A stretch of 64,000 bases of DNA, from IMG/VR virus record IMGVR_UViG_3300037466_002724, positions 27,009 through 91,008 of that record; one strand, given 5' to 3'. Of the stretch, positions 5,578 to 35,696 are shown piece by piece. A program made the position numbers and the translations under genes. This stretch comes from a virus. Positions within the stretch are counted from its first letter, which is position 1, and each line of letters starts with the position of its first letter. Below the pieces are notes generated by a model. It had not been told where the DNA came from. It made no database searches and saw only the letters and a program-made list of their open reading frames with translations.

Positions 5578-5593
5578 GTCGTGACCCTACGAT
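5578..5593 (+). promoter_or_regulatory. Putative phage late promoter (leaderless)
   Basis: GTCGTGAC-cc-TACGAT, 6 nt before ATG 5600; no room for an SD. Confidence 0.75.
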
Positions 5594-5599
5594 GGTGGG

Positions 5600-8500
5600 A
5601 TGAAGCCGATCCTGTTCCTGAAAGCACAGTCCATTCCGCCCGGCGCGCGCTGGATCACTATTCACGCGGGCGGGAACAAAGACGCCAAGGGTCAGCCGGT
5701 CCTAATCCAGCCCAACGCTGATGGCTCAGCGCACGTGTTGGGCGGGGCAGGGGGAGCCCTCAACTACCTCAAGCTGCGCGCGGTGCGCTCGGAATCGGAC
5801 TACAAGCGCGAGGCGCTGGAGAAGAAGAAGGCCCGGACCGAGGCGAAGAAAGAGCAGCGGAAGCGCGACAAGGAAAACGGCCTGGTCGAGTCGAAGAAGA
5901 AGGCCCGCGACGCGGTGAAGGCGCAGGTGCACGAGCACGAGCGCAAGTTCGTCCAGTCGGTGGCGGACGCCATGGGCTGGGATCCGAAGTCGCTGGAGTT
6001 CCCCGAGCAGGACGTTGCGCACCTGTCGGACGCCGCGCAGGCCAAGCTGCGGCTTCAGCACCACCAGGAGCTGCTGCAGCGCGCCACCGAGGCGGTCGAT
6101 GTCCAGCGCAAGAGACTGGTCGATGACGCGGCCGCGCGCATGGATGCCGGGATCAGCGAGATCCCGCTCGAGACCAAGGACCCGAAGACGCTGTCGGTTC
6201 AGGACCTGAACCCCGTGAAGGCCGAGGGTGGCGGACCCGGCTTCGCGCCGCACTACAAGGAGCGCGCCGAGGACGCCGGCCTGACCGAGGGCGAGCTCAA
6301 GGCCGAGGCCGCTGCCACCAAAGAGGCCAAGCAGGCGCAGATGACGCCGGCGCAGCGCCAGGCCGCCGTCGCGCGCGGCGAGACCGCGAAGATGGTCGCC
6401 AACGAGATCAAGTCGATCCGCGAACCGCTGGTCGGCGACACCAAGGTGCAGCTGGCCGACGCCAAGACCGCCGTCGCGCTGCTGAAAGCGCAGAAGCAGC
6501 TGCGCCAGCTCCACAAGAAGGCACAGGACGCCAACCGCGAGATCGACCGCGCGGCGACCGAACCGAAGGCCTACGTGATCGAGTACACCGCCGACCCGGA
6601 GGCCGACGCCAAGGTCGAGGCGGACATCGAGGGCGACCTGCGCACGATGAAGACCCGGGCATTCCTGTCCGAGTTCCAGCAGCTGGCCGGCGAAGCGCCG
6701 GGCGAATCGCTGGGCAAGCACATCGGCGTGGGCGCCTACAACAGCATCAACTCGCTGGCGCTCGCCGTGGGTGGCGAGGCGCTGGTCGATCGGTCGGTGG
6801 TGGACGTGCTGGGCGTGGCGGGGGCCGCGCAGGTGCTGGCGCGCCGGATCCACAACGACCTGCCGCAGGATGTCGAGCGCATCGCCGACGGTATGCAGCA
6901 GTTCCACCTCGACCACTACATGGCGACCAGCGAGCAGGCGCTGTCGGATGCGCGCGACCTGATGGAGACGGCCAAGGAGATCGAGCTCGGCGAGCTGACG
7001 AACGGCGCTGACCTGCAGGCCGCGCAGGAGCTCAACGCGCGCCGGCGCCGGGCCGTGAACGACGCGCAGAAGGTGCTCGGCCAGGCGCTCGGGGAGATGG
7101 AGGCAAACGCGGCACTGGTGACTGCGCTCAAGCAGGGCAAGAAGGACACGTTCCAGGTATCGCTCGGCAAGACCGGCGTCGAGGACGCCATCCGCCAGGC
7201 GCGCGCGATCGGGCTGCAAAAGGGCGACTACACGCTCGAGGATGTGGCCGGCGACCGCTTCCTGACCATCAACGCGGCCGGACTGGACCGGCTGGCCAAG
7301 CCGGTGAACCGCGACGACGTCGAGCAGGTGAAGCGCAACCTGGCCATCATCCGCGGCGATCAGGACGAGGACGGCTGGCTGCCGCTGGGCGTGGCGAACC
7401 GCCCAGACCTGTCCATGGATGTGAAGCCGGGCGCGGCGCCGTCGCTGGCCATCCCGTTCGAGCCGGGCGAGGACCTGGAGCAGTCGCTGATGGACTACAT
7501 CGGCGGGCGCGCGGCTGACGGCGACACGCCGGGCGACATCGTGGCCGACATTCAGTCTGCCGAGTTCTTCCAGAAAGTTGGCTCGGGTCGGGCCGAACAA
7601 TATCGCAAGGCGCTCGACGCGGTGGCCCCGCTCAAGGGCGCCGACGGCAAGATGCGCCGCGCCGATGCGCTGGGCGACGCGTTCGATGGTTATGCCGACC
7701 TCTTTGTGCAGAACCGCTACGGTAATGCCCGCTCGACCCTGAACCGCCAGCAGTTCAAGGTGGACAAGAAGTCGGTCGACGCGCTGCACCGCGCGCTGGC
7801 TGAGACGCCGGAGGGCACCGCCGCTTACAAGCCGATCGGCGAGCTGACGCCGCAGGACCAGCGCGCCATCCGCGAATTCTTCTACCGGAACGTGGCCAAG
7901 GAGTCGCCGGACGCCGCCGCGCTGCGCCAGGACCTGGAGAAGCACGCCTCGGCCGAGCCGGCGGCCGAGACTACCGACATGTTCGGCGACACCGTGCCCA
8001 ACCCGGAACACGGCGAGTGGCGCGCGCGCCGCGACGAGCTGGCCGGCCAGGTCAATGCCTCCTCCCTGACCTGGGGTAAGTACATCGACGTGATGGGCGG
8101 CCATGCGAAAGCCTACGAGGCGGTCCAGGACCTGATCCGCTCGCGCGTCGGCAAGGCATTCGCCGATGCCCACAACAAGTTGAACCCGGGCGCGCCGATC
8201 AAGGTCGGCAAGGCGCTGATCCGCAACAACCTGAACCACCTGGACGCCACCGACGCCGAGGCGCGCGAAGCCCGGCTCGCCCGTGACCGCGCGCTGACCG
8301 ACAGTTTGCGCGAGCGCGTGCAGGGCAAGTACGCATCCGGCAGCGTGGCCGACAAGCTGGACGCCGCGCGCGATCGCCAGGCGGCGTTCGACCAGGCGCA
8401 GATGGGCTTCTTTGCCGACGAGGCGCCGCCGACCGCGGCCGAGGACATCAAGCTCGAGGGCGACGAGCGCCACTCGATCGGGCACGCGGCCGAGCGCCAG

Positions 8501-10135
8501 ATCGCCGGCATGATGGGCGTGGTTGGCCAGAACTTCAAACCGGGTGCCCCGACCAAGCTGTGGGCGCCGACCATGAGCGGGGGGAAGAACGCCGCGCGCC
8601 AGCGCCTGGTCAAGCTGGTGGACGCGAACAAGCGCGTGGTCGCCGCGTTCGGCACCGGCTCCGGCAAGTCGCTGCTGCAGCTGGTCTCGTTTACCCACCT
8701 GAAACAGCAGGGCAAGGCCAAGCGCGGCCTGTTCCTGGTGCCGTCGATCGTCCAGGGCCAATTCTCGGGCGAGGCGCTGCGCTACCTCGAGCCGGGCAAG
8801 TTCAACTGGCACATCCAGCCTGGCGCGAGCCGCGATGAGCGGATCGCCGCCTACAAGGACCCGAAGCACGATTTCGCGGTAATGACGCACCAGTCTTTCC
8901 GCGACGACATGATCCACCTGGGCGCCAAGCACGCCGGCATCCCAGAATCCGAGATGGCCGACCGCCTGAACGCCATGACGGACGAGGAGCGCAAAGGCTG
9001 GATGGGCGACCTGATGGAGCGCGAGGGGATCAACTTCGACTACCTCACGGTGGACGAGAGCCAGAACACCCTGAACCGCGCCGGCAAGGAGAACTCGAAC
9101 CTGGCGAATGTGGTCGACGCGCTGTCGCACCACACGCCGCACTACCTGCTGGCGTCCGGCGACCCGGTCAAGAACGATGCGTCCGAGGTCTACGACCTGC
9201 TGCGCAAGATGGACCCGGCCCGCTACAGCGACCGCGGCGCCTTCATGCGCCGCTACGGCGCCGACACGCTGGCCAGCAAGGATGCGCTCAAGCGCGAGAT
9301 GGCGCGCTACGTCTACCCGTCGAAGATCGACCCGGACGTGCAGGCCAACCGGCGTGAGGAGAAAATTCCGCTGTCCGAAGGCCAGAAGCTGGCGCTGTCC
9401 GAGCTCGACAAGCATTTCAGCAGCGCGCGTATCGCCCGCATGCAGGGCAAGGTGGACGTGGACGCCATGAAGGCGATCTCGCCGGGCTCGTTCGCGAAGG
9501 TGCCGGCCGACCAGCACGAGGAGGTGGCGCGCAACCTACAGGCGAACATCGGCATCCTGCGCGCATCGGCTGTCCAGCGGGTGATCAACACGCATGCTGA
9601 CAACGCCAAGGTCGACCACCTGGCGCAGCTCGCGACCGCGCGCAAGGGCAAGCCGGGCGTCGTGTTTGCGCACTCGCTGGACGCGGTCAAGGCGATCAAG
9701 GAGCGGCTGGAGAAGGAGGGGCATCGCGTGGTCAGCCTGACCGGCGCCGATTCCTCGACCGAGAAGGAGCGCAAGCGCCTGATGTTCAACCCGGAGCAGG
9801 GCGACGCTCAGGCCGACATCCTGATCGCGTCGGACGCCGGCGCCACTGGCATGAACATCCAGCGCGGCCAATGGCTGGTGCAGATGGACACGCCCCAGAC
9901 GGCGATGACGCATGCCCAGCGCCAGGGCCGCATCTTCCGCACCGGCCAGAAGAACAACGTCGAGCTGATCGACCTGGTGGCGGACCATCCGGAGGAGCGC
10001 GCCGCGCGCGACCGCCTGTCGAAGAAGTATGGCCTGCGCGAGATGATGACCAGCTCGATGGAGGGGCTGGATGACACCGGCGTCGCCGCATACCTCAAGC
10101 AGGCGCAGGTCAACCAGCAGGAGAGCCTGCTGTAG
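5600..10135 (+). CDS. Large SNF2-family helicase/ATPase (1511 aa), probable virion internal protein
   Basis: C-terminal motifs FGTGSGKS, LVPS, TVDESQ, LASGDP, ATGMNIQ, QRQGRIFRTGQ; long helical N-terminal region; starts MKPILFLKA. Confidence 0.85.
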   Translation: MKPILFLKAQSIPPGARWITIHAGGNKDAKGQPVLIQPNADGSAHVLGGAGGALNYLKLRAVRSESDYKREALEKKKARTEAKKEQRKRDKENGLVESKKKARDAVKAQVHEHERKFVQSVADAMGWDPKSLEFPEQDVAHLSDAAQAKLRLQHHQELLQRATEAVDVQRKRLVDDAAARMDAGISEIPLETKDPKTLSVQDLNPVKAEGGGPGFAPHYKERAEDAGLTEGELKAEAAATKEAKQAQMTPAQRQAAVARGETAKMVANEIKSIREPLVGDTKVQLADAKTAVALLKAQKQLRQLHKKAQDANREIDRAATEPKAYVIEYTADPEADAKVEADIEGDLRTMKTRAFLSEFQQLAGEAPGESLGKHIGVGAYNSINSLALAVGGEALVDRSVVDVLGVAGAAQVLARRIHNDLPQDVERIADGMQQFHLDHYMATSEQALSDARDLMETAKEIELGELTNGADLQAAQELNARRRRAVNDAQKVLGQALGEMEANAALVTALKQGKKDTFQVSLGKTGVEDAIRQARAIGLQKGDYTLEDVAGDRFLTINAAGLDRLAKPVNRDDVEQVKRNLAIIRGDQDEDGWLPLGVANRPDLSMDVKPGAAPSLAIPFEPGEDLEQSLMDYIGGRAADGDTPGDIVADIQSAEFFQKVGSGRAEQYRKALDAVAPLKGADGKMRRADALGDAFDGYADLFVQNRYGNARSTLNRQQFKVDKKSVDALHRALAETPEGTAAYKPIGELTPQDQRAIREFFYRNVAKESPDAAALRQDLEKHASAEPAAETTDMFGDTVPNPEHGEWRARRDELAGQVNASSLTWGKYIDVMGGHAKAYEAVQDLIRSRVGKAFADAHNKLNPGAPIKVGKALIRNNLNHLDATDAEAREARLARDRALTDSLRERVQGKYASGSVADKLDAARDRQAAFDQAQMGFFADEAPPTAAEDIKLEGDERHSIGHAAERQIAGMMGVVGQNFKPGAPTKLWAPTMSGGKNAARQRLVKLVDANKRVVAAFGTGSGKSLLQLVSFTHLKQQGKAKRGLFLVPSIVQGQFSGEALRYLEPGKFNWHIQPGASRDERIAAYKDPKHDFAVMTHQSFRDDMIHLGAKHAGIPESEMADRLNAMTDEERKGWMGDLMEREGINFDYLTVDESQNTLNRAGKENSNLANVVDALSHHTPHYLLASGDPVKNDASEVYDLLRKMDPARYSDRGAFMRRYGADTLASKDALKREMARYVYPSKIDPDVQANRREEKIPLSEGQKLALSELDKHFSSARIARMQGKVDVDAMKAISPGSFAKVPADQHEEVARNLQANIGILRASAVQRVINTHADNAKVDHLAQLATARKGKPGVVFAHSLDAVKAIKERLEKEGHRVVSLTGADSSTEKERKRLMFNPEQGDAQADILIASDAGATGMNIQRGQWLVQMDTPQTAMTHAQRQGRIFRTGQKNNVELIDLVADHPEERAARDRLSKKYGLREMMTSSMEGLDDTGVAAYLKQAQVNQQESLL

Positions 10136-10155
10136 CAGTGTTGCGGCGGAACATC

Positions 10156-10185
10156 TTCACAACTTTGATCTTTTCTGGTTATACT
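10156..10185 (+). promoter_or_regulatory. Putative sigma70 promoter (leaderless) for a moron-like unit
   Basis: TTCACA-18 nt-TATACT, 7 nt before ATG 10193. Confidence 0.5.
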
Positions 10186-10192
10186 TGAGCCC

Positions 10193-10438
10193 ATGAAAAA
10201 CCGTCACCTTACCAAAATCGCCTTCCTGCTTCTCGGCTTCCTCGTCTTCTGCGCGGCCGCGCCGCTGGTGTTGTTCATGGCGCCGGCACAGGCTGAGGAT
10301 GCGAGCGCCTGCTACAGCATCAACGATGGTGACACCCGTACTTACTGCCTGGCGCGCGCGCACCACGATGCCAGCCAGTGCTATGCCATCCAGCGGCCGG
10401 ACCTGCGTGCGCAGTGCCGCGCCGAAGTGAGGAAGTGA
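10193..10438 (+). CDS. Small secreted Cys-rich protein
   Basis: Signal-like N-terminus (…APAQA|EDA) and two CY-x-I-x6-7-C repeats. Confidence 0.75.
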   Translation: MKNRHLTKIAFLLLGFLVFCAAAPLVLFMAPAQAEDASACYSINDGDTRTYCLARAHHDASQCYAIQRPDLRAQCRAEVRK

Positions 10439-10686
10439 TGCAGGCCCACATCAACACCACGCACAAGCAGCTGGGCGAACTCGCGGCTATGTCGCGCCAG
10501 ACCGAGGACGCCGAGCGCCGGATCCTCGCGCGCGCGACCGAGCGGCTGGGCGAGGTCCAGGCCGAGCTGTCTGCGGCAGGGCCCAAGGCGCTGACCGGCG
10601 GCGGCGACAAGTACATGGAGCTGGTCAAGGAGCGCGGCCAGCTGCAACAGGTCATTGCGCAGGCGCGCCAGGTCCTGGACGCCTGA
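10438..10686 (+). CDS. Hypothetical coiled-coil protein
   Basis: TGATG coupling at 10436-10440; ends before a terminator. Confidence 0.7.
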   Translation: MQAHINTTHKQLGELAAMSRQTEDAERRILARATERLGEVQAELSAAGPKALTGGGDKYMELVKERGQLQQVIAQARQVLDA

Positions 10687-10707
10687 GCCGCCAACCAACC
10701 CCTGATT

Positions 10708-10734
10708 AAAGCCGCCTCGAGCGGCTTTTTTGTT
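10708..10734 (+). terminator. Intrinsic terminator
   Basis: AAAGCCGC-CTCGA-GCGGCTTTTTT. Confidence 0.85.
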
Positions 10735-10755
10735 GCCCAGCGCACAGCCTGAATC

Positions 10756-10771
10756 GTCGTGACACGATGAT
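10756..10771 (+). promoter_or_regulatory. Putative phage late promoter (leaderless)
   Basis: GTCGTGAC-ac-GATGAT, 7 nt before ATG 10779. Confidence 0.75.
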
Positions 10772-10778
10772 TGCGGGC

Positions 10779-12298: not shown

Positions 12299-12328
12299 TT
12301 CACACCACCCAAGACCAAGGAAGCAATC

Positions 12329-13840: not shown

Positions 13841-13914
13841 TCGCCTCGGCTGGGTAACCAGCGCCTCGGTTGCAGCCGCAGCCGGGGCATTTTCGCATCT
13901 ACCTGGAGATCATC

Positions 13915-14247
13915 ATGGTTCAAGTCGTCTGCACCCGTCCGAACGCTGCCGAAGAGATCAGCGGCGTCAAGTTCACCAAACACGATCAGGGCATGCTGTC
14001 GGAAGAAATCTCCGACGAGCAGGCCGCTCACTTCCTGGCGGTCCCGGGCTACCACGTCCTGGGCGAACACCCTGCCGGCGAGGATCATGAGGCCGATGAC
14101 ATCGAGGCGCTGCGTGCACGCGCGACCGAGCTCGGTGTCGAGGTGAAGCCGGCCTGGAAGGCTCCGCGCCTGAAAGCCGAGATCAAGCGCGCCGAGGACG
14201 AAGCTGCGGCCAAAGCCGCGGCCGAAGCCGCCGGCAAGACCGAATAA
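13915..14247 (+). CDS. Hypothetical virion-associated protein
   Basis: GGAG SD before ATG 13915; directly after MCP. Confidence 0.7.
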   Translation: MVQVVCTRPNAAEEISGVKFTKHDQGMLSEEISDEQAAHFLAVPGYHVLGEHPAGEDHEADDIEALRARATELGVEVKPAWKAPRLKAEIKRAEDEAAAKAAAEAAGKTE

Positions 14248-14536: not shown

Positions 14537-14565
14537 AAAGCCCGCTTCCGTAGCGGGCTTTTTTT
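14537..14565 (+). terminator. Intrinsic terminator
   Basis: AAAGCCCGCT-TCCGT-AGCGGGCTTTTTTT. Confidence 0.85.
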
Positions 14566-14579
14566 CGTGACTGCACCAT
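14564..14579 (+). promoter_or_regulatory. Putative phage late promoter
   Basis: TTCGTGAC-tg-CACCAT overlapping the terminator U-tract; leadered (GAGGAG SD before 14608). Confidence 0.6.
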
Positions 14580-14607: not shown

Positions 14608-15714
14608 ATGCCCACCATTACGCCTGACGGGGAAAATCCCGTCTGGATCGAGCAGGACAAGGACGCGCGCAAGGAATATCGGTTCGACCTGGCGACGCTG
14701 CTGCCGGAAGGCGAGGCGCTGGAATCGGCCACCTGGTCGGCAGATACCGGCTTTACGGTGAATGAGAGCTCGGTCGATGGCACGCAGCTGGTCGTGGTGC
14801 TGTCGGGCGGTTCGCCGCAACAGTGGTACACCGCGACGGCATCGTACCAGACCACCGGCGGGCGTTTCCAGGACCAGCTTGTGGTGCAGGTCTTCATCAA
14901 GAGCGACGCCGAGACTGCCTCGCCGATGGGCTCGGCGCTGTTCCCGAACCGCTTCACCGCAGTGGCGCAGCTCCAGCGCGATAGGCTGATGCTGGCGGCC
15001 CAGACCCACTTCGCTGGCGTGAAGCTGTCACCGGATTACGTCTGGGAGAAGCTGCGCGCGGCAGAGGCCGAGGCCTCGCGCATCCTGCGTGTGCGGTTCC
15101 AGCCAACCATGTTCTTCCCAGACGATCCGACCGACGACCAGGTGGCCGCCCTGAATGGCATGCCGTGGGAGCTCGACCAGGGCTACGACTACGATCCGGA
15201 CATGTACCAGAACGACCGCTGGGGCTTCTTCAAGACCCATTCGTCGCCGCTGATCTCGGTCGAGAAAGTGCGCTTCTCCTATCCGGCCGTCGGCGGCGTG
15301 AATTTCGAGATCCCGCCCGAGTGGCTGCAGCTGGACAAGAAGTATGGCCACGTGCGCATCGTGCCATTGACCGCATCGGCCGCTGCCATGCTCACGCCGT
15401 TCGTCATGCAGCTCATTTCCATGGGCCGCGTGATCCCGAACATGGTTCGCATCACCTATGTGGCCGGCCTCCAGAACGCCGCCGGCGACTATCCGGAGCT
15501 GGTCGATGTCGTGAAGAAGATGGCCGTGCTCAAGATCATCGAGGACGGCTTCCTGCCGCAGTCCGGGTCGATCGCCGCTGACGGCCTGTCGCAGACCGTA
15601 AGCGTGGACATGAGCAAATATGACGAGATCATCGATCGGACCCTGAATGGCCCGCCGGGCGTGAACGGCGGCCTGCGCGCGGCCATCCACGGCATCACCA
15701 TGGGGGTGATGTGA
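14608..15714 (+). CDS. Head-tail adaptor/neck protein with extra N-terminal beta domain
   Basis: First gene after the capsid unit; C-terminal YVAG…SIAADGLSQTVS motif typical of adaptors. Confidence 0.6.
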   Translation: MPTITPDGENPVWIEQDKDARKEYRFDLATLLPEGEALESATWSADTGFTVNESSVDGTQLVVVLSGGSPQQWYTATASYQTTGGRFQDQLVVQVFIKSDAETASPMGSALFPNRFTAVAQLQRDRLMLAAQTHFAGVKLSPDYVWEKLRAAEAEASRILRVRFQPTMFFPDDPTDDQVAALNGMPWELDQGYDYDPDMYQNDRWGFFKTHSSPLISVEKVRFSYPAVGGVNFEIPPEWLQLDKKYGHVRIVPLTASAAAMLTPFVMQLISMGRVIPNMVRITYVAGLQNAAGDYPELVDVVKKMAVLKIIEDGFLPQSGSIAADGLSQTVSVDMSKYDEIIDRTLNGPPGVNGGLRAAIHGITMGVM

Positions 15715-16352
15715 TGCGGCTGAACCCGACCGCCTTCAATGGCCTGCTCAACGGGATCGGCCAGGCCTTCAAATACCGCAAGGCCTTCACCTGCCCGTGC
15801 CGCAATCCGAACTCCGGCGCCGGCAACCCGAAGTGCCCGAAGTGCGCCGGCAAGGGCGTGTTCTGGGGACCGCAGGTCGATGCCACCGCCGGCGTCGCCA
15901 GCCAGGGCGTGACCAAGCAGTATGCGCAGTTCGGGCAGTGGGAGGCGGGCGACGCGGTGTTCTCGATCCCAGAGTCGAGCCCAATGTACGATGCTGGCCG
16001 CTTTGATCGAATGCTGATGCTGAACAGCACCGACCGCTTCTCACTCACCCTGACCCATGGCGCCAGCGATCGGGTCAACCTGCCGATCGAGGCGATCGAG
16101 TACGTGTTCTGGCTGGATGACGCTGGAAACCAGGTCTACGGCGGCATCCCAGCATTCGATGAGGCTGGATACCTGACCTGGCGCACGGGCGAGCCACCGC
16201 TGGGCAAGCAGTTCGCCGTAGCAGGCACAAGATTTACAGAATACTTCGTGTGGGAGAACCTTCCTTCTGATAGGGGGGAGCATCACGGCGCCCGGCTGCC
16301 CAAGCGCGTGCAGGCGCGCCGCTTCGACCTGTTCAAGGGGGCTTCGACCTAA
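15711..16352 (+). CDS. Head closure/neck protein with Cys motif
   Basis: CPC-x10-CxxC-x-GKG motif, as in neck proteins of Twort-like myoviruses. Confidence 0.6.
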   Translation: MMRLNPTAFNGLLNGIGQAFKYRKAFTCPCRNPNSGAGNPKCPKCAGKGVFWGPQVDATAGVASQGVTKQYAQFGQWEAGDAVFSIPESSPMYDAGRFDRMLMLNSTDRFSLTLTHGASDRVNLPIEAIEYVFWLDDAGNQVYGGIPAFDEAGYLTWRTGEPPLGKQFAVAGTRFTEYFVWENLPSDRGEHHGARLPKRVQARRFDLFKGAST

Positions 16353-17140
16353 CCGCCCAGGTCACGCTTGACCGCCTCGCTGAATGCCTTTTCGGCGAGC
16401 GGTTGCAGGCGATCGGTCACGCCCTTGACCAGGTTCAGGCCCGGCTTGGCCGGCACGATCCAGCCTGGCGAGCCCTCCACCATGACGCGGAACGTCAGGT
16501 AGGTGCTGGACTTGGCGTTCCCGCTCGACGTGTCGAAGCGGTACATCCCAGCGTGTCTGCTCTGCATCTTCGGCGTGGCGCCAGCCGGCAGCGACCCGCC
16601 CCATGCGTACTTGCGCTGCGGGACCGTCAGCGGCTTGCGGCTCTTGATGTCGAAGGCGCCGGTTCCGGATAGCCGGCGCCCGGTCCCGGTGACCCGCGAG
16701 GGATCGAGCTGGCGCGCGAGCTCGTACACGTCGTCTGGCATCGACGGGGCTAATGCGTTCGCACCTGGGACCCCATGCCTGAACGGAATTATTAGGTATC
16801 TAGCGCCCTTCTTCGACAGCCTGACTTTCAGGCTGGTGTCCAACATCTTCTTGAGGTCGCGCGCCGGCCGCCCGCTGTCGATCTCCTGGGCCCACTTGTA
16901 GTCGCTCGATACCTCGGCCGAGAAGGCGCCGGTCATCTTCCAGGTGATCGACTCGCCGTACTGCTGCTTCTCGCCGCTCCAGAGCTTGGCGCGCGCGACG
17001 GCCTCCTTCCAGTCGATCGTGGCCTGCTGCGCAACCGCGCTGACTGCCTGGTTCAGACGCGGCAGGACCGAGGCGTCGATAATGCCGCGCGCCTGGCCCA
17101 TGACGTCCGAGAGGTCGACCTTGATGCGAAATTGGCTCAT
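16349..17140 (-). CDS. Neck/virion morphogenesis protein (HK97 gp10-like), inverted
   Basis: Basic protein with DLKKML…YLIIPFRHG…TFRV…GWIVPAKPG motifs; has its own late promoter on the minus strand. Confidence 0.7.
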   Translation of the reverse strand: MSQFRIKVDLSDVMGQARGIIDASVLPRLNQAVSAVAQQATIDWKEAVARAKLWSGEKQQYGESITWKMTGAFSAEVSSDYKWAQEIDSGRPARDLKKMLDTSLKVRLSKKGARYLIIPFRHGVPGANALAPSMPDDVYELARQLDPSRVTGTGRRLSGTGAFDIKSRKPLTVPQRKYAWGGSLPAGATPKMQSRHAGMYRFDTSSGNAKSSTYLTFRVMVEGSPGWIVPAKPGLNLVKGVTDRLQPLAEKAFSEAVKRDLGG

Positions 17141-17146
17141 GCGCCG

Positions 17147-17188
17147 ATGATAGCGTCACGCCCGCGCGGGTGGTCGTGACGTGATCAT
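17147..17188. promoter_or_regulatory. Back-to-back pair of putative late promoters (both leaderless)
   Basis: Minus strand: GGCGTGAC-gc-TATCAT-6 nt-ATG(17140). Plus strand: GTCGTGAC-gt-GATCAT-6 nt-ATG(17195). Confidence 0.75.
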
Positions 17189-17194: not shown

Positions 17195-18022
17195 ATGATC
17201 TCGCTTATCCAACCAGTCGCCGCCGGCAACGCGCTCAGGATTTTCCTTGAGCCGCCGCCGGGCGCCGTCTGGTGGCGGCTGCTGCGCAAGGTCGCGGACA
17301 CGTTCACGGACGAATCCGACCCTGACGCCTTGCTAATCTACGAGGGCAGCGCCGAGAAGAACACGCTCGACATCGCCCAGCTGGTGAACGGAACCCTGTA
17401 CTACTACCGACCTTACTACCGGGTCGGCGCCGACTGGGTGGCTGGCGCCACCGTAACCGCCACGCCGAACGCGACCTACGAGGGAATCGGCGGCGACGTG
17501 CTGGAGCTCGTGCGCGACCGGCTCGACCTGGGCCTCCAGGAAGAGGTGCGCCGCGGCGCACTCACTCACGATCAGGGGCATATCAAGGTCCTGACGGCGC
17601 CGCCGATTTTCGAGGACACCGTGTTCCCGGTGGTGACGGTGCACCTGACTGAGGACAGTCCAGCCGAGCGCGCGATAGGCGAGATGGTCGAGGAAGACCA
17701 GTTCGACGCCGACAGCTTCGGATGGGCCGAGAAGGAAGGTTGGCTCGCGCGCACCAGCCTGACGATCATGGGCTGGACCATGAACCCGGACGAGCGGATC
17801 GACCTGCGCAAGGCGCTGCGCCGCCTCGTCCAGGCCAACCTGCCGATCTTCGATTTCGCCGGCATGGTGCAGATCGAGTTCTCGCAGCAGGACACCGAAG
17901 ACTTCGCGTCGTACAGCGCGCCCGTCTACCAGGTCCTGTGCACGTTCTCCTGTCTTTCGCCTGCTCAGGTGGGCGCAAAGGTCGGCGCAATCAGAGATGT
18001 TGTTACAACTTTTACGGAGTGA
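17195..18022 (+). CDS. Putative tail completion/terminator protein
   Basis: Precedes the sheath; FPVVTVHL…GWTMNPDER motifs of tail-terminator type. Confidence 0.55.
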   Translation: MISLIQPVAAGNALRIFLEPPPGAVWWRLLRKVADTFTDESDPDALLIYEGSAEKNTLDIAQLVNGTLYYYRPYYRVGADWVAGATVTATPNATYEGIGGDVLELVRDRLDLGLQEEVRRGALTHDQGHIKVLTAPPIFEDTVFPVVTVHLTEDSPAERAIGEMVEEDQFDADSFGWAEKEGWLARTSLTIMGWTMNPDERIDLRKALRRLVQANLPIFDFAGMVQIEFSQQDTEDFASYSAPVYQVLCTFSCLSPAQVGAKVGAIRDVVTTFTE

Positions 18023-19978: not shown

Positions 19979-20404
19979 ATGGCAAAGGTAAATCAAAACG
20001 TCCGCTCCGGTAACCGGATCGTCATCCAGCTCGACGGCAAGACCGTCGGTCTGATCCAGTCGGTTCGCATGAGCGACGACTATGCACCGGACGCTGCCAG
20101 CGGCATCGGCGACATCCACGTCACCGAGCACGTGCCGACCATCGCCCGCCACAGCATCTCGGTCAGCACCATGGTGATGAAGCGCGCGACGCTGCGCCAG
20201 CTCGGCATCGCCTCGGAGAACGGCGACGATGCCCTGACCGGCCGTGTGTTCGACATCGTCAGCTACGACAAGGACACGGGCGAGGAGCTGCGCAAGTACA
20301 TGGGCTGCACCTACGCCTCGGGCGATCTGGAGGTGAACAAGCACGCCATCGTCATGTCGTCCGGCACCTTCATGGCGCTGGATGTGTCCGGCATCGCGGC
20401 CTGA
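19979..20404 (+). CDS. Tail tube protein
   Basis: 141 aa after the sheath; SGNRIVIQLDGKTVGLIQS…IGDIHVTEHV. Confidence 0.8.
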   Translation: MAKVNQNVRSGNRIVIQLDGKTVGLIQSVRMSDDYAPDAASGIGDIHVTEHVPTIARHSISVSTMVMKRATLRQLGIASENGDDALTGRVFDIVSYDKDTGEELRKYMGCTYASGDLEVNKHAIVMSSGTFMALDVSGIAA

Positions 20405-20426
20405 CCCAGCTGCGCTACCGCGCCAG

Positions 20427-20449
20427 GGCCCGCTTCGGCGGGCCTTTTT
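20427..20449 (+). terminator. Intrinsic terminator
   Basis: GGCCCGC-TTCG-GCGGGCC-TTTTT. Confidence 0.85.
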
Positions 20450-20452: not shown

Positions 20453-20468
20453 GTCGTGACCGTATCCT
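20453..20468 (+). promoter_or_regulatory. Putative phage late promoter
   Basis: GTCGTGAC-cg-TATCCT directly after the terminator. Confidence 0.7.
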
Positions 20469-20502: not shown

Positions 20503-20907
20503 ATGAGCCGTCCAGCCGCTGCCTCCGATTTCCCCGTCGACGTGCCCAACGTCGGCGCGTTCTTCTTCGCCAAGCGCATGCTGCGCGACGAGATGCGCAT
20601 CGCCGCCGAGTATTCTCGCCTCACCGAGGGCGTCGAGACGCCATCGACCTGGCTGGCAATCGTGGCTGGATGGATTTCGGCGCTCAAGGTGCTGACGGTT
20701 TCAGCCCCGCAGGGCTGGGACATCGACGCGATGGACCCGCTCGACCCGGCTACCTACGACAAGCTGCGCGACGTGCACTCGGCGCTGCGCGAAAAGGAGG
20801 ACTCCTTTCGCGCAGGGGCTGGAAAAGCGGGCCAAGCGAGCGGGCCGCGAGCTGGCGAAGTCGAAGGAGTTCTGGTTCCGGCGCAAGTACAATCTGGCGC
20901 CGACTGA
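20503..20907 (+). CDS. Tail assembly chaperone (short form)
   Basis: Between tube and tape measure; contains TCC TTT CGC at 20803-20811. Confidence 0.75.
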   Translation: MSRPAAASDFPVDVPNVGAFFFAKRMLRDEMRIAAEYSRLTEGVETPSTWLAIVAGWISALKVLTVSAPQGWDIDAMDPLDPATYDKLRDVHSALREKEDSFRAGAGKAGQASGPRAGEVEGVLVPAQVQSGAD

Positions 20908-25474: not shown

Positions 25475-26343
25475 TGACGATTCGATATGGCGTCGTGGTT
25501 GCGACGCACCCCGAGGACCACTCGGTCGACCTGGTGATGACTGACGACTACTCGCGCCTGGCAGGCGTGCAGGTCCTGACTTCGAACGGCAACGGCGCTT
25601 ATGGGCGCAACGACCTGTACGCGCCGGACGAGAAGTCGGACGATGCGAAGTGGGACCTGAGCAAGGTCGGCCCCAAGAACCCGATCGCAGCGGTCGCGTT
25701 CGGGCTGGGCATGGCGGTGGTGATCGGCTTCCGCTTCCCGCAGGTCAACGGGCTGACCTTCAACGAGAAGAACCTGCGGGTCGACCGGCATTCGTCCGAG
25801 GTCTACTCGACGTTGAACGATGCCGGCGACTACGAGATGGCCTGGCCGAATGGCACCTTCGTGCGCGTGGGTGCCAGCCCGGACCACGTCGACCTGAACG
25901 GCAAGGGCACCGACAGCAAGTGGGCGACCGACAAGAACACCGGCGCGCAGATGCACCTGCGCCTGGTGCTGGGCGCCGGCAAGCTGGACTTTCATGTGGA
26001 TCCCGACGGTAACGTGGTGATGACCCATGATGGCGACCTGACCCTGCACACCAAGGGCAAGGCGACCGTCAACGTAGACGGCACGGCCGACATCACCGTG
26101 GGCGGCGACACGAAGCTGACGACCCCGAAGCTGACGGTAGACGCCCCGGAATCGACGTTCACCGGGCACGTTACGATCGAGGGTGGGCTGTCGGTGTCCG
26201 GCGGCACGGGCACCACCGCGGCGATCGCCGGCGACCTGGCCGTGACGGGTGGCGACGTGAAGGCCGACGCTATCAGCCTGAAACAGCACAAGACCTCGGG
26301 CGTCGTGCCAGGCAGCGGCACCAGTAACGTCCCGGTCCCCTGA
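25474..26343 (+). CDS. Baseplate spike (gpV-like)
   Basis: N-terminal OB-like region, beta-helix-like repeats, C-terminal SLKQHKT…SGTSNVP. Confidence 0.8.
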   Translation: MTIRYGVVVATHPEDHSVDLVMTDDYSRLAGVQVLTSNGNGAYGRNDLYAPDEKSDDAKWDLSKVGPKNPIAAVAFGLGMAVVIGFRFPQVNGLTFNEKNLRVDRHSSEVYSTLNDAGDYEMAWPNGTFVRVGASPDHVDLNGKGTDSKWATDKNTGAQMHLRLVLGAGKLDFHVDPDGNVVMTHDGDLTLHTKGKATVNVDGTADITVGGDTKLTTPKLTVDAPESTFTGHVTIEGGLSVSGGTGTTAAIAGDLAVTGGDVKADAISLKQHKTSGVVPGSGTSNVPVP

Positions 26344-26356: not shown

Positions 26357-26372
26357 GTCGTGACGCTACGAT
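26357..26372 (+). promoter_or_regulatory. Putative phage late promoter (leaderless)
   Basis: GTCGTGAC-gc-TACGAT, 6 nt before ATG 26379. Confidence 0.75.
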
Positions 26373-26378: not shown

Positions 26379-27521
26379 ATGAACCTTTCCCCGGCTCAAA
26401 GTCAGAAGGCGGAAGATCGCCCGATCTCATTCATCCTCGACGCCAGCGGCGGCGCGGACGAGGTGACTTTGTTCATCCGGCCGGAGGAGATGACGCGCAC
26501 GCATCCGTCGCGCACCTCGGTCAACCAGACCCTTGGCGGGGCCTGGATCGATAGCTTCGGCGAGGGGCTGGAGACGGCCACGATCACCGGCACGCTCGGC
26601 TGGCGCACCGGCCCGGACGGGCAAGATGGCGCCCAGCGCCTGCTCACGATGCGCGAGAAGACCTACACCGAATGGCACAAGCAGCGCCACGCGGCGGTCG
26701 ATCGCGGCGATGATCCGAACGGTGTCAAGCTGCGGTTCGTGGACGCGCTCAACAGCTACTCCAGCGTGATCGTGCCGCTGACCTGGGAGGTTCGGCGCAG
26801 CAAGAGCCGGCCGCTGCTAGCGAGCTACCGTATCTCGTTTATTGCGGTCGGCAAGGCCGGCGCGCCGGGCGGTATCTCCGGCCTGCTGCTCGGGGCTGGC
26901 GGATTCGGTGACGTACAGGGCCTCGGCCTGAACAGCCTGTTCTCGTCCCTGGGCGAGATCAACCGCGCCATCAACACGGCAAAGAGCTTCGTCAACAACA
27001 CGGTCCTGGCGCCGGTGACCGGCTTCCTGCGCCTGTCGAGCCAGGTTTTCACCCAGGTGCACGGCACGATCCAGAACGGCCTGTCCCTGGCCGATCCGTT
27101 CATCCAGGTCGCGCACAACATCGCCCAGACCGGAGTCAACGTGTTCCGGACACTGGCCTCGGTCGCGAACATCCCGATGGAGGCCAAGGCCGCGCTGATG
27201 CAGGTGGCTGGCGCCTACAGCAACATCTTCTGCGTGCTGAAAAACTCGCTCAAGAAGTCGGCGACCTACGAGGACTACAACCCGCTGTACGGCGCATCGA
27301 ACTGCTCGTCGACGGGTGGCGGCTTGCCGCCGTCGCAGTATGCGGACCAGAACCCGTTCTACTACGTGTCCCCTTCCGCAACCAACTCGGTCGGCGTCTC
27401 CCCGCGCGCCAGTGCCGCCCTCAATGACTTGGCGCAGCGCGACATCGTCCTGACGCCGTTGCCGCTGTCGACGATCGGCACATCGCTAACTGATGTGAAT
27501 GCGGGGGTGCTGCTGGCATGA
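26379..27521 (+). CDS. Baseplate protein (tube-initiator-like)
   Basis: IRPEEM…QTLGGAWIDSFGEG..TITGTLGW…RSKSRPLL motifs; baseplate context. Confidence 0.6.
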   Translation: MNLSPAQSQKAEDRPISFILDASGGADEVTLFIRPEEMTRTHPSRTSVNQTLGGAWIDSFGEGLETATITGTLGWRTGPDGQDGAQRLLTMREKTYTEWHKQRHAAVDRGDDPNGVKLRFVDALNSYSSVIVPLTWEVRRSKSRPLLASYRISFIAVGKAGAPGGISGLLLGAGGFGDVQGLGLNSLFSSLGEINRAINTAKSFVNNTVLAPVTGFLRLSSQVFTQVHGTIQNGLSLADPFIQVAHNIAQTGVNVFRTLASVANIPMEAKAALMQVAGAYSNIFCVLKNSLKKSATYEDYNPLYGASNCSSTGGGLPPSQYADQNPFYYVSPSATNSVGVSPRASAALNDLAQRDIVLTPLPLSTIGTSLTDVNAGVLLA

Positions 27522-30449: not shown

Positions 30450-30451
30450 AC

Positions 30452-32032: not shown

Positions 32033-32047
32033 GACCGTCTCCAAATC

Positions 32048-32063
32048 GTCGTGACACCACAAT
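32048..32063 (+). promoter_or_regulatory. Putative phage late promoter
   Basis: GTCGTGAC-ac-CACAAT; leadered (GGAGG before GTG 32090). Confidence 0.7.
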
Positions 32064-32089
32064 GACCTCTAACACCATCGGAGGTCATT

Positions 32090-32533
32090 GTGAAATTCAA
32101 CGACGATGTGGGCCGGCCTCGCGGCGAGTTCATCCTGAACGTATTCCGCGGCGGCGAGCTCATCGAACAATACCGCGACGCGAACCTGGTCGTGGACAGC
32201 TCGAAGCCGACGCTGGCCAAGCTGCTCGGCGGAACCGTCGCGAACAACAGCGTCACCCAGATCGCATTCGGCACCAGCGGCACCTCGCCCGCCCCCGGCA
32301 ACACCTCGATCACCAGCCCGTACCAGAAGGCGATCGACACGGTCACCTACCCGGCCAGCAACCAGGTCTCCTTCAACTTTTCGCTGGGTACTGGCGAGGC
32401 GAACGGGATGGGTATCCTCGAATTCGGCCTGCTGACCACCGCCGGGGCCTTGTTTGCCCGCAAGGTGCGCACCTCCGCCCTCAACAAGGATACCGACCTG
32501 ACGCTGTCCGGATCCTGGATTATTTCCTTCTAA
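32090..32533 (+). CDS. Baseplate/tail fibre attachment protein
   Basis: NLVV…IAFGTSGT…EANGMGILEFGL…LFARK motif. Confidence 0.7.
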   Translation: MKFNDDVGRPRGEFILNVFRGGELIEQYRDANLVVDSSKPTLAKLLGGTVANNSVTQIAFGTSGTSPAPGNTSITSPYQKAIDTVTYPASNQVSFNFSLGTGEANGMGILEFGLLTTAGALFARKVRTSALNKDTDLTLSGSWIISF

Positions 32534-32542
32534 GGGCCGCAC

Positions 32543-34093
32543 ATGGCGAACATCCCAGAGCTCATTCAATACGACGCTGGCATCTACCAGCTCGAAACCA
32601 CTGACCCGGTCCAGGGCGGCGTCAACGGCATCGCGAACGCGCAAGCCAAGGGGCTCGCGAACCGCACCGCGTACCTGAAACAACATATCGACAACCTGGA
32701 GGCCGGCAACACAATCCCGCCTGGCATCGCCAAGGTTGATAGCCAGGCGTTCACTGGTTCGCCGACGGTGCCAACGCCGGCGCGCGGCGACCGCAGCCTG
32801 CTGATCGCCAACACGACGTTCGTTAAGGACGTCGCGCACGGCGTCCTGGCAAAGAATGTAGCCGGCGGCGCCAATGTCACGCTTACTGCGGATGAGGCCA
32901 GCTACGCCATCCTGGTGCTGACGGGCGCCATCACCGCCAACATCGACGTGATCGTGCCGGCCACCGCGCACAACTTCGTCGTCCTGAACCAGACCACGGG
33001 CGCGTACACGCTGCGCATCAAGACCGCGGCCGGCACCGGTGTCTACGTCAAGCAGGGCAAAAACCTTGAGCTCGTCTGCGACGGCACCAACGTCCTGCAG
33101 GCCACGACCGATTTCACCGACACGGCGCTGACTGGCACCCCGACGGCCCCGACGGCGGCGATTGGCGACAATAGCACCCAGCTGGTCAACACGTCGTTCC
33201 TGCAGAACACCATCGGTGGCGTGGTATCCGTCAATGTGGCCGGCGGCGCCGACGTCACGCTGACCCAGCCCCAGTGGGGCTACGGCATCATCCTGCTGAC
33301 CGGTGCGATCACTGCCAACATCAATGTCATCCTGCCGACCATCAACGACCAGTGGATCATATGCAATAAGACCACGGGCAACTTTACGGTGACCCTCAAG
33401 ACGGCCGCCGGCACCGGCGCCGTGGTCCAGCAGGGCGCGAGCGTGGTCGCCTACTGCGATGGCACGAATATCGCGCTGGCCGGCTCGACCCCGGCGTCCA
33501 CGTTCAACCCGGTGCAGATTTCCGGCACCGGTACGACCTTCGCCCTGACCTACACGCCGGGCAACCTGATCGTGGTGAAGAACGGCGCGACGCTGGCGCC
33601 CACCGACTACACTGCAACCAGCGGCACCAGCATCACGTTCAACACGGCGCTGGTCAGCAGCGATGTCGTGTACGCGTTCGTTTTTTCGTCGATCGTCATC
33701 GCCAATGCGCTGACCCAGGCGAGCGCGGATCTGCGCTATGCGCTGATCAACAACGGGACGCTGAACAAGCCCACCATCAAGGGCTACATCGAGCAGCTGC
33801 AGTCGCTCACGGGAGCCTTGGTGACGGTCGACCCGACCAACGGCACGATCGTGCTAATCACCACGTCGGCCAACACCACGATCACGTTGCCGACGCCGGT
33901 CGACGGCATATGCTTTGTGCTGGTTGTCTCGTACGGCGGCGCGCACACGGTCATGTTCGCTGGCGGTGGCACGCTGCGCTGGGCCAATGGTTCCGCGCCG
34001 ACAGCCACCAGCACGGCTGGCAAGATGGACAAATACGTATTCACCTGCCTGGGTGGCAATACGCTTGGCCAGGACGGCGGCCGGGGCTTCTGA
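32543..34093 (+). CDS. Tail fibre protein with internal duplication
   Basis: YQLETTDPVQGG…LANRTAYLK N-terminus; two ~120-aa repeats (FTG.PT.PT…VAGGA.VTLT…LTGAITANI…KTAAGTG). Confidence 0.85.
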   Translation: MANIPELIQYDAGIYQLETTDPVQGGVNGIANAQAKGLANRTAYLKQHIDNLEAGNTIPPGIAKVDSQAFTGSPTVPTPARGDRSLLIANTTFVKDVAHGVLAKNVAGGANVTLTADEASYAILVLTGAITANIDVIVPATAHNFVVLNQTTGAYTLRIKTAAGTGVYVKQGKNLELVCDGTNVLQATTDFTDTALTGTPTAPTAAIGDNSTQLVNTSFLQNTIGGVVSVNVAGGADVTLTQPQWGYGIILLTGAITANINVILPTINDQWIICNKTTGNFTVTLKTAAGTGAVVQQGASVVAYCDGTNIALAGSTPASTFNPVQISGTGTTFALTYTPGNLIVVKNGATLAPTDYTATSGTSITFNTALVSSDVVYAFVFSSIVIANALTQASADLRYALINNGTLNKPTIKGYIEQLQSLTGALVTVDPTNGTIVLITTSANTTITLPTPVDGICFVLVVSYGGAHTVMFAGGGTLRWANGSAPTATSTAGKMDKYVFTCLGGNTLGQDGGRGF

Positions 34094-34752
34094 TGTTTAG
34101 CTCTATCGGAATAGCCACCCGCCGGCTGGTCACCCAGACGTTCACCGGCAATGGCACGTGGACAGCGCCCGCGACCACGACGCGGATCGAGTCGGCGAGC
34201 GGTTATGGTGCGGCCGGCACGCCGAGCAGCTACAGCGGCGATGTAAATCAGAGCCACATAGTCGATACGATTCTTGGACAGAATAACACAGGTAACGGAT
34301 CCTCGACATCTGGAGCCCGGTCCTGGGATAGCTTCCAGAACGATGCTGTCAGTGTTGCCTCTCACATCAACGGTGGTGGGACAGGGACGGACTTGGACTT
34401 CCATTACACCGGTCATTTGGCTGATAACACCTATGATTGGGCGACGAATTCGTTTCCTTTCAATAATGCTATCCCCGGAAGCGCGACGGTCTCCTATAGC
34501 TCCGGATGGAAAACTACCGGGGCGGTCGTTGACGGGGACATTGGTTTCAGCACGGTCGCCTGGCGCGAGTACGGCACGACTACGCCAGCCACGACAGGAG
34601 CCGACACGACCGCCTTCGGCGACACGTTCCCGGGCGGCACTGGTGGTCCGGCGACCCCGACATCGTTCTCGAACATCGCGGTCACCCCTGGCACCGCATA
34701 CCCCATCACGGTCCCGTCAGGCGGATCGTTGACAATCACGTATTACCAATAA
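34093..34752 (+). CDS. Tail fibre-associated protein
   Basis: TGATG coupling; Thr/Gly-rich (TFTGNGTWTAP…AVTPGTAYPITV); lower-GC central part. Confidence 0.7.
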   Translation: MFSSIGIATRRLVTQTFTGNGTWTAPATTTRIESASGYGAAGTPSSYSGDVNQSHIVDTILGQNNTGNGSSTSGARSWDSFQNDAVSVASHINGGGTGTDLDFHYTGHLADNTYDWATNSFPFNNAIPGSATVSYSSGWKTTGAVVDGDIGFSTVAWREYGTTTPATTGADTTAFGDTFPGGTGGPATPTSFSNIAVTPGTAYPITVPSGGSLTITYYQ

Positions 34753-34770
34753 GAAAGGCTGGGCCGATGT

Positions 34771-35655
34771 GTGTCGATTGCTGAAAACCTTGCACGGATC
34801 GCTTCCTTCCTGACGGCTGACACGTCGGGGAACCTGACCGGCACAACTACACCGCCGTCGAACGACAACTCGAAGGCACTGGCCACCACCGAGTGGTTCA
34901 ACCTGCTGGCGGCCGCGCATGGTCAGTGCCGGCTGGCTTACGTCAGCGGGACCTCGATTAAGCTGTCCCCGGCCAACGGCCGCAGCCTGATCATCAATGG
35001 CACGGCGCAACAGGTACCGACGGCTGGCGTGACGGTCTCCAACTCGGGACTTGCCGCCTCGACGCTCTACTACGTGTACGCATACATGAATGCCGGTGCG
35101 ATGGCGCTTGAGCTGTCTACTACCGGGCATTCCACCAACACGAATTGTGTCGAGATCAAGAGTGGCGACGCATCGCGCACGCTCGTCGGCATGGCGTACT
35201 TGAACGCCAGCTCCCAGTTCCAGGACGATACGGCCAACCTGCTGGTGCTTTCTTACTTCAACCGCAAGCGCAAGGTGGGCAAGGCGAAATTCACGGCCGA
35301 TCGCTTCATGGCGTCCAGTGTTGGCGTATTCAGCGAAGTCAACACCGAGATCCGCGTGACTTTCCTGACGTGGGCAGACGAGCCGGTTCGCCAGGCCATT
35401 TGTGGTGGCTGGACCGTCAATGGCGCGGCCACCGGTTACGGCTATGCCAACATCGACAACGATACAAGCGGCCAGCGTGCCTGGTGCTCGACCAGCTCGA
35501 ACACGACCACCACGCTGAGCTCGGTCGACGAGCGGTTCGTGACCGAGGGCTATCACTTCGGCTCGCTCACCGGCAACTGCGCCAGCGGCACCAGTGTCCA
35601 GTACATCGGCGGAAAGAACGGCGAAGTGAGCCACGTGCTGACTGTGGCGGGGTGA
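34771..35655 (+). CDS. Tail fibre/RBP-like protein
   Basis: TTPPSNDNSKALATTEW fibre repeat; GLAASTLYYVYA…RTLVGM…VLSYFNR. Confidence 0.65.
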   Translation: MSIAENLARIASFLTADTSGNLTGTTTPPSNDNSKALATTEWFNLLAAAHGQCRLAYVSGTSIKLSPANGRSLIINGTAQQVPTAGVTVSNSGLAASTLYYVYAYMNAGAMALELSTTGHSTNTNCVEIKSGDASRTLVGMAYLNASSQFQDDTANLLVLSYFNRKRKVGKAKFTADRFMASSVGVFSEVNTEIRVTFLTWADEPVRQAICGGWTVNGAATGYGYANIDNDTSGQRAWCSTSSNTTTTLSSVDERFVTEGYHFGSLTGNCASGTSVQYIGGKNGEVSHVLTVAG

Positions 35656-35680
35656 TTGGCGGCGCGCTCGTTGGGCGGCC

Positions 35681-35696
35681 GTCGTGACGATACGAT
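35681..35696 (+). promoter_or_regulatory. Putative phage late promoter of the lysis cassette
   Basis: GTCGTGAC-ga-TACGAT. Confidence 0.7.

Follow-up and report, generated by a model that had tools for sequence, protein, structure and literature searches.

What turns on the head, tail and lysis genes of the phage in IMG/VR record IMGVR_UViG_3300037466_002724? The window analysed here is a stretch of 64,000 nucleotides (nt) that makes up bases 27009-91008 of this 91,008-bp virus record (64% G+C), which IMG/VR lists as complete, with direct terminal repeats. By its gene content the phage looks like a temperate myovirus: it encodes a head protease, a major head protein, a tail sheath, baseplate and tail-fibre proteins, a holin, an endolysin and an integrase, together with a replication module of helicases, single-stranded DNA-binding protein and primase. 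A 16-base signal stands before the head, tail and lysis genes and consists of an octamer (GTCGTGAC in most copies, called the box below), two free bases and a hexamer. Judged by its sequence and setting, this signal is very probably a phage-specific late promoter without a -35 box. The likely explanation for the observations as a whole is that host sigma-70, together with a phage-encoded factor that reads the box, uses it as a late promoter. An earlier note on this DNA had listed nine copies with their hexamers, and all nine were found again where it had placed them; a tenth copy that it had suggested also exists as sequence. These copies, and the hairpins that precede three of them, are as follows.

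5578 to 5593, plus strand: predicted late promoter GTCGTGAC-cc-TACGAT, leaderless, with the ATG of the gene for a 1511-residue SNF2-type helicase (5600-10135) 6 nt past the hexamer.
10708 to 10728, plus strand: intrinsic-terminator-like hairpin and T run, 27 nt before the 10756 box.
10756 to 10771, plus strand: predicted late promoter GTCGTGAC-ac-GATGAT, leaderless, with the in-frame ATG of the head maturation protease gene (10779) 7 nt past the hexamer.
14537 to 14561, plus strand: intrinsic-terminator-like hairpin and T run, directly abutting the 14564 box.
14564 to 14579, plus strand: predicted late promoter TTCGTGAC-tg-CACCAT, abutting that terminator, with a 28-nt leader containing GAGGAG before the gene 14608-15714.
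17147 to 17162, minus strand: predicted late promoter GGCGTGAC-gc-TATCAT, leaderless, with the ATG of the gene 16349-17140 6 nt past the hexamer; one half of a divergent pair.
17173 to 17188, plus strand: predicted late promoter GTCGTGAC-gt-GATCAT, leaderless, with the ATG of the gene 17195-18022 6 nt past the hexamer; the other half of the divergent pair.
20425 to 20446, plus strand: intrinsic-terminator-like hairpin and T run, directly before the 20453 box.
20453 to 20468, plus strand: predicted late promoter GTCGTGAC-cg-TATCCT, abutting that terminator, with a 34-nt leader before the gene 20503-20907, which lies upstream of the gene for a 963-residue lytic tail protein.
26357 to 26372, plus strand: predicted late promoter GTCGTGAC-gc-TACGAT, leaderless, with the ATG of the virion/baseplate gene 26379-27521 6 nt past the hexamer, as also in phages PHB04 and Dolphis.
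32048 to 32063, plus strand: predicted late promoter GTCGTGAC-ac-CACAAT, with a 26-nt leader that holds a potential hairpin (gacctc...gaggtc), then the GTG of the gene 32090-32533 and the tail-fibre genes.
35681 to 35696, plus strand: predicted late promoter GTCGTGAC-ga-TACGAT before the lysis cassette (a gene at 35738-36013, the holin gene 36010-36312 and the endolysin gene 36881-37513).
60645 to 60660, plus strand: candidate weaker copy CTCGTGAC-cc-TATGAT, 46 nt upstream of the membrane-protein gene 60707-61054 (phrog_2470).

The hexanucleotide CGTGAC by itself occurs in the window at chance level (58 copies against 58.7 expected). CGTGAC-N3-A-N3-T, by contrast with its own expectation of 1.68, occurs there 14 times, a number reached by none of 100 shuffles. 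When TCGTGAC was followed in the whole genome by k bases and then A-N3-T, 13 matches were obtained at k=3 and between 0 and 2 at each other k from 0 to 9. The fixed 2-nt gap to a hexamer with invariant A and T, as the earlier note had described it, is thus a single exclusive register. An information profile built from twelve copies shows the block c-G-T-C-G-T-G-A-C, two free bases and the hexamer (T/g/c)-A-(C/T)-n-A-T. In promoter numbering, GTCGTGAC covers about -22 to -15 and is followed by two free bases and by the hexamer nAnnnT at -12 to -7, with A(-11) and T(-7) invariant. Between -40 and -4, counted from the start of CGTGAC (upstream of about -23 in promoter numbering), there is no informative position, so that the absence of a common -35 element holds up, and a TGn extended -10 (TG at -15/-14) is likewise lacking, C being fixed at -15 and the bases at -14/-13 being free. 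Four CGTGAC-N3-A-N3-T matches (36839, and 39274, 54697 and 54791 on the minus strand) were set aside as chance matches: they have no GT prefix, and at least those at 36839 and 39274 lie within genes.

All nine copies lie in non-coding DNA, which makes up about 10% of the late region, and each is aimed at the next gene; their assignment to intergenic sites upstream of virion and lysis genes therefore stands. In a 54-bp divergent intergenic region, which has to accommodate two promoters, the sole content is a back-to-back pair of boxes (17162 on the minus strand and 17173 on the plus strand). Canonical sigma-70 promoters are not above chance in the late region (3 against 2.3 expected from shuffles). 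At least five further clear copies lie in the record upstream of the window, before the portal gene, a 382-residue head-module gene, the gene for a 2501-residue DarB-like protein and others. For genome-wide counts we used 19 box sites, namely 18 matches to TCGTGA-N4-A-N3-T and the GGCGTGAC copy at window position 17162 (minus strand).

Is the signal peculiar to this phage? Its nearest cultured relatives (about 86-95 kb) are Bordetella PHB04, Aeromonas ST4, Pseudomonas Dolphis and Jeremy, Escherichia ECML-606-1, Enterobacter phiT5282EW and Yersinia fHe-Yen8-01, with capsid proteins 61-75% identical to its own. Identity is 41-43% to Pseudomonas Touem01 and Morganella Mecenats66 and about 32% to the Thermus Lalka phages, and the major capsid protein has no P1 match at an E value of 1e-5. 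A pattern scan of the full genome and relatives, in line with the check that the earlier note had proposed, found TCGTGA-N4-A-N3-T enriched over shuffles in the phage's own genome (18 matches against 1.1), PHB04 (17 against 1.1), Dolphis (14 against 1.3) and ECML-606-1 (9 against 2.0). Touem01 gave 16 matches against 0 in a reversed-pattern control, again just ahead of gene starts. In Mecenats66 the strict pattern is not enriched, and GTGAT-N2-hexamer variants stand ahead of ORF50 and the genes for protease and holin, and also within the divergent gap that matches the one in the window. At orthologous intergenic sites conservation is confined to the box and hexamer and does not extend into the flanks. 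The divergent pair is kept in PHB04, Dolphis, ECML-606-1 and Touem01, Mecenats66 retaining a box in that gap, and the protease gene has a box before it in PHB04, Dolphis, ECML-606-1 and Mecenats66. Because the CTCGTGAC variant also precedes gene starts in PHB04, the 60645 site is plausible as a weaker copy of the box.

Beyond the cultured phages, we examined 33 prophage loci from Alpha-, Beta- and Gammaproteobacteria, collected through the family of P0001, a protein described below. The 524 kb around P0001 homologues contain 48 strict matches, about eight times the expectation, many of them with an ATG 6 nt past the hexamer. The box is common to a family of ~90-kb phages. A scan of viral_contigs for a double-box pattern returned, among the matches listed, 2 family-like loci out of 80 checked, the matches otherwise being due to chance. 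In the full-text literature we found no paper describing the motif or the transcription of PHB04-like phages, and a search for the octamer gave only unrelated papers among the matches listed.

Where would transcription start? A sigma-70-type polymerase usually starts 6 or 7 nt past the last T of the hexamer. An ATG lies at exactly this distance in five of the nine window copies (5600, 10779, 17140 on the minus strand, 17195 and 26379) and at 8 of the 19 box sites genome-wide. In the remaining four window copies a leader of 26-41 nt intervenes, and in three of these it contains a purine run resembling a Shine-Dalgarno sequence (GAGGAG, AGGAAA, GGAGG). Transcription would start 6-7 nt past T(-7), and in the five copies this base would be the A of the ATG, giving leaderless messenger RNAs (mRNAs). 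A transcription start predicts the split between an ATG at +1 without a ribosome-binding site and one further off behind a leader, whereas an RNA or translation signal does not. The placement of the ATG at +1 is kept at the orthologous portal, protease, helicase, baseplate and 382-residue protein genes of PHB04 and Dolphis, with matching N-termini; the PHB04 helicase gene, for example, has the arrangement of the 5578 copy and the same N-terminus, MKPILFLKA. ECML-606-1 keeps it at the divergent pair. Its protease promoter (record position 34490, minus strand) has at +1 an ATG that opens only a two-codon frame, ATG TTT TGA, and the real start lies 22 nt further on, with the purine-rich AAGGG before it.

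The three hairpins with T runs listed above bear out the earlier observation that three copies (10756, 14564 and 20453) closely follow terminators. Terminators just ahead of several boxes would split the late region into many separately promoted units, and this view of the region, which the earlier note had also taken, is further backed by the late promoters mapped in the Thermus phage Lalka27a. In relatives, a different layout is often seen at copies that are not leaderless: a terminator hairpin and T run begins right after the hexamer, with the predicted start inside the 5' arm of the stem. Such sites occur in Dolphis (28082) and ECML-606-1 (7558, both in record coordinates) and, in Mecenats66, before ORF50, the terminase gene, ORF66, ORF68, ORF75 and the holin gene. 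This layout would be an overlapping terminator-promoter insulator, at which read-through stops and box-started transcripts lack the full hairpin.

Lalka27a is a distant structural relative: its capsid protein is about 32% identical, and it, too, has a DarB-like protein and a large virion helicase. A 2026 preprint describes 16 late promoters in this phage, which lack a -35 element and are marked by TAGGGT and a conserved C at -25 (bioRxiv 10.64898/2026.04.20.719267). Start sites from small RNA sequencing (sRNA-seq) lie 6 nt past the hexamer for half of these promoters, and the transcripts are mostly leaderless (bioRxiv 10.64898/2026.04.20.719267). The phage has no sigma factor or polymerase of its own; the authors conclude that a phage factor alters polymerase specificity, and that many promoters serve in place of antitermination (bioRxiv 10.64898/2026.04.20.719267). 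These mapped promoters provide, by analogy, the best experimental support for reading the box as a factor-dependent late promoter. The two motifs are distinct: the hexamers here are TACGAT, GATCAT, CACAAT and similar rather than TAGGGT, and position -25 is unconserved.

How, then, could such promoters work? A(-11) and T(-7) are the bases flipped out by domain 2 of a sigma-70-type factor. Six-frame searches of the whole genome found no sigma-70 r2 or r4, no Ogr/Delta (PF04606) and no Mor domain. A T7-type polymerase (PF00940) was not found in a search in which control genomes also gave no signal, and no large unassigned open reading frame (ORF) looks polymerase-like. With A(-11) and T(-7) invariant and no phage sigma found, melting would most likely be done by the host sigma-70 holoenzyme. 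The hexamers are weak (CACAAT, GATCAT and similar) and come with neither a -35 nor a TGn, so that the promoters should need help and would be silent alone, for example in a lysogen. We infer that this help comes from a phage protein made earlier, which would bind the box, or bind RNA polymerase and read the box, and so replace the -35 contact. A lysogen must keep more than 12 scattered virion and lysis promoters off, and positive control would fit this better than repression at each site. The promoter class that the earlier note had proposed, specific to the phage and dependent on a factor, is thus supported, as far as sequence can speak for it, by the spacing, the placement, the start codons at +1, the terminators and the conservation in phages of unrelated hosts. 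The most likely candidate for the reader of the box is a pair of zinc proteins encoded at 57123-57958, which would have a sigma-70-type promoter of their own and possibly an operator:

57070 to 57098, plus strand: probable early promoter of the P0001/P0002 operon, with the only TGnTATAAT of the genome and, before it, a unique palindrome GGATAT-N6-ATATCC.
57123 to 57650, plus strand: P0001, candidate factor gene 1, 175 residues, a Cys/His-rich orphan with invariant C20, C32, C50, C53, H59, C76, C79 and C95.
57650 to 57958, plus strand: P0002, candidate factor gene 2, 102 residues, with an N-terminal CxxC...CxxC zinc ribbon and a conserved CCCG...DAGIRC part; most relatives have it next to P0001.

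Three other explanations rank well below host sigma-70 acting with a phage-encoded reader. The one that survives best, itself unlikely, is that a highly divergent phage-encoded sigma-like protein (compare T4 gp55 and phiEco32 gp36) takes the place of sigma-70 and recognises all 16 bp together as an extended -10. As in T4 late promoters, there is one block near -10 and no -35, and P0001 and P0002, at 175 and 102 residues, are near T4 gp55 and gp33 in size. However, the six-frame search gave no sigma-70 r2 or r4 signal, the P0001 model is an alpha/beta zinc protein unlike any solved structure (best Z 2.5), and host sigma-70 already accounts for the A(-11)/T(-7) signature. We consider it quite improbable that host RNA polymerase acts alone, with GTCGTGAC as a spacer element that boosts weak -10 boxes and no phage factor. 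The identical box in phages of very different hosts could mean that it is read by a component conserved among the hosts, for instance sigma-70 or the beta' zipper; against this, at least 13 structural and lysis promoters silent in a lysogen would need repressor sites at each, and none are seen, the early and replication promoters of this genome do not carry the box (the P0001 operon has TGnTATAAT instead), and the late motif of Lalka27a differs. Least probable of all is an RNA signal, either a site for cleavage of a long late transcript immediately ahead of AUGs or a loading site for a Q-like antiterminator, for which the fixed distance to the AUG in many copies and the parallel with lambda Q (a zinc-finger protein that binds near the -10 region) would speak, but the long-leader copies have the box 25-45 nt from the start codon, invariant A-N3-T with starts 6-7 nt on is the signature of a -10 element, and the strongest arguments against any model needing an upstream transcript are the three copies right after terminators and the two that face outward from the divergent gap with no incoming transcript. 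The many terminator-promoter units also disfavour a single antiterminated transcript, as has been argued for Lalka27a (bioRxiv 10.64898/2026.04.20.719267).

To return to host sigma-70 and a phage factor, what singles out P0001 and P0002? We compared all predicted proteins with those of PHB04, Dolphis and ECML-606-1. P0001 and P0002 were the only conserved non-structural genes outside the replication/recombination module, which we take to include the small helix-turn-helix gene upstream of it. Mecenats66 likewise has both, and Touem01 has at least P0001 (the search there did not cover P0002). Naming the genes at 57123 and 57650 as factor candidates, as the earlier note did, therefore picked out the only conserved, unassigned pair outside the structural and replication genes in all relatives checked; the role itself stays that of a candidate. 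The two genes are adjacent in 19 of the 33 prophage loci. Lineages from Pseudomonas and Methylobacterium showed no separate P0002; there, a similar ribbon forms the C-terminus of a longer P0001. Paraburkholderia forms of P0001 have an N-terminal domain with weak winged-helix signals (Pfam E value about 0.02), and one is named 'winged helix-turn-helix domain-containing' by NCBI. Neither the proteins nor the box is found in Lalka27a, which has no GTCGTGAC and only 3 copies of TCGTGAC; this joint absence is consistent with a link between them and is not proof of one. Several prophages have a copy of the box (TCGTGAG/T or TCGTGAC) ahead of the P0001 homologue itself, about 410-500 bp away in loci L028, L029, L031, L032 and L033 and about 55 bp away in L038 and L043, sometimes followed by an inverted repeat, GATCACG...CGTGATC. 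Such boxes hint that the candidate factor regulates its own gene. The palindrome before the P0001 promoter may be an operator, and its single occurrence in the genome means that no repressor regulon can be drawn from it.

Several observations weigh against a role of the pair as reader of the box. Neither protein matches a known DNA-binding or polymerase-binding fold: P0001 gave no informative match in Pfam, PHROGs, NCBIfam, a PDB sequence search, Foldseek, VIA-align or the ESM Atlas, and P0002 showed in the same resources only a generic likeness to zinc ribbons (Rpb9/TFIIS-type, E value about 1). The AlphaFold models of the two are of fair quality, with predicted local distance difference test (pLDDT) values of 80 and 85. 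Co-occurrence of the pair with the box does not discriminate, since every core gene of the family co-occurs with it, and in Mecenats66 the box is relaxed to GTGAT despite the presence of both proteins. In four phages the pair lies directly downstream of an origin-like region, with iterons flanking AT-rich DNA, and a replication role of the zinc pair is a real alternative. P0001 and P0002 are the leading candidate for the reader, through guilt by association. In that role they would form a new class of late activator that reads GTCGTGAC at -22 to -15 and lets host sigma-70 start without a -35, often at the AUG, in a ~90-kb temperate phage and prophage family of Alpha-, Beta- and Gammaproteobacteria that includes an E. 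coli phage, a proposal to which we give somewhat less than an even chance.

The origin-like region of the window lies just upstream of the P0001 operon, at 56590-56960, where 12 copies of GGTTACC flank an AT-rich stretch, a layout suggestive of a replication origin. It recurs in PHB04, Dolphis and ECML-606-1, where the repeats read GGATACC, GGTAACC and GGAACGG, the iteron sequence differing among the four phages. A second, short GGTTACC array is found at about 5525-5560, directly before the late promoter at 5578.

Our next question was how the box compares with known late-promoter systems. The closest is that of P1, whose late promoters (LP23, LP26, LPpmgL, LPhot, LPpac and others) are activated by Lpa; promoters of this type use host SspA as co-activator. 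P1 is a temperate myovirus with a ~94-kb genome and, like this phage, has a giant virion protein of the DarB type. Its annotated late promoters, about eleven scattered over the genome, each have a 9-bp box separated from TANNNT by four bases and lack a -35. Common to both phages are a -10 hexamer, the lack of a -35 and, within the spacer, a short box that is conserved and in part palindromic; the P1 scheme of a -10 hexamer TANNNT without a -35 has its counterpart here in invariant A(-11) and T(-7) with nothing upstream of the box. The P1 box reads AAGTGACTT, ATGTGACTT or AAATGACTA in the P1 record and has the core GTGAC in common with the box here, while the flanks differ (AAGTGACTT in P1, GTCGTGAC here). 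It ends 4 nt before the hexamer, with GTGAC 6 nt away, whereas the gap here is 2 nt, a shift of 4 bp, and the 9-bp inverted repeat AAGTGACTT near -22, 4 nt before the hexamer, is not found in this phage. The earlier note had drawn the P1 analogy with the reservation that the sequence was different, which is right for the flanks and spacing and too strong for the box as a whole, the shared GTGAC core meaning that it is not unrelated. A homologue of Lpa was not found: tblastn of P1 Lpa against the whole genome gave a best E value of 1.1, and hhalign of two candidates, A1 and A2, against Lpa gave a probability of 0.1%. No start codon lies at +1 in the five annotated P1 late promoters inspected. 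Because the box is 4 bp closer to the hexamer and the genome has no Lpa homologue, the promoters here are not members of the P1 system; by analogy, they would work like it. The P1 lpa gene has its own repressor-controlled sigma-70 promoter, of which the TGnTATAAT and palindrome of the P0001 operon are reminiscent.

T4 late promoters, TATAAATA, have a single element near -10 and no -35, and are helped by the small phage proteins gp55, gp33 and gp45. The sequence here is another one, and T4 uses a phage sigma with a sliding clamp, whereas no sigma-like protein was detected in this phage; the search, which gave no sigma-70 r2 or r4 signal, could be escaped by a very divergent sigma. P2 and P4 rely on small zinc-finger proteins, Ogr and Delta, to turn on several late promoters in a temperate myovirus. 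P2 Ogr sites are TGT-N12-ACA near -55, whereas here nothing is conserved upstream of about -23, down to about -60 (40 nt before CGTGAC), and the Ogr_Delta domain PF04606 was, as said above, not found. Activator-dependent late promoters without a -35 are known from P1, T4, Mu and P2, each with its own protein and geometry, and the box and geometry described here appear to be new among them.

The signal is nearly invariant across phages of three proteobacterial classes and can serve as an annotation tool: in phages and prophages of roughly 90 kb, where most genes are hypothetical, it points to late operons and genuine start codons. Translation from leaderless mRNAs, unusual in such hosts, is predicted for many essential virion genes of Proteobacteria phages, an E. 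coli phage among them. The GTGAC core is common to the P1 box near -22 at a 4-bp offset and the candidate proteins are unrelated, which raises the question whether a shared feature of polymerase or DNA favours this sequence. With the reader identified, a new means of redirecting bacterial RNA polymerase would become known.

Some of the genes behind the boxes deserve mention. Two giant SNF2-type proteins are encoded ahead of the head genes (window 1-10135), one DarB-like with 2501 residues, whose gene starts before the window, and the other the 1511-residue helicase; they match virion components of Lalka27a, its DarB-like protein and its 'large virionic helicase'. Similar N-terminal peptides occur on unrelated late proteins (MKPILFLKA, MAILFLKA, MIILFRK, MSTVILFLKS and MPVILFLK), at window position 5600, at positions 8936 and 24435 of the genome, in PHB04 at 25654 and in the region of 49318, and at 20046 in locus L041. 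A peptide of this ILFLK type may be a capsid-targeting or processing tag of packaged cargo proteins. In the lysis cassette, an HNH endonuclease gene (36378-36992), to all appearances a mobile insertion, lies between the holin and endolysin genes and extends into the endolysin ORF (36881-37513).

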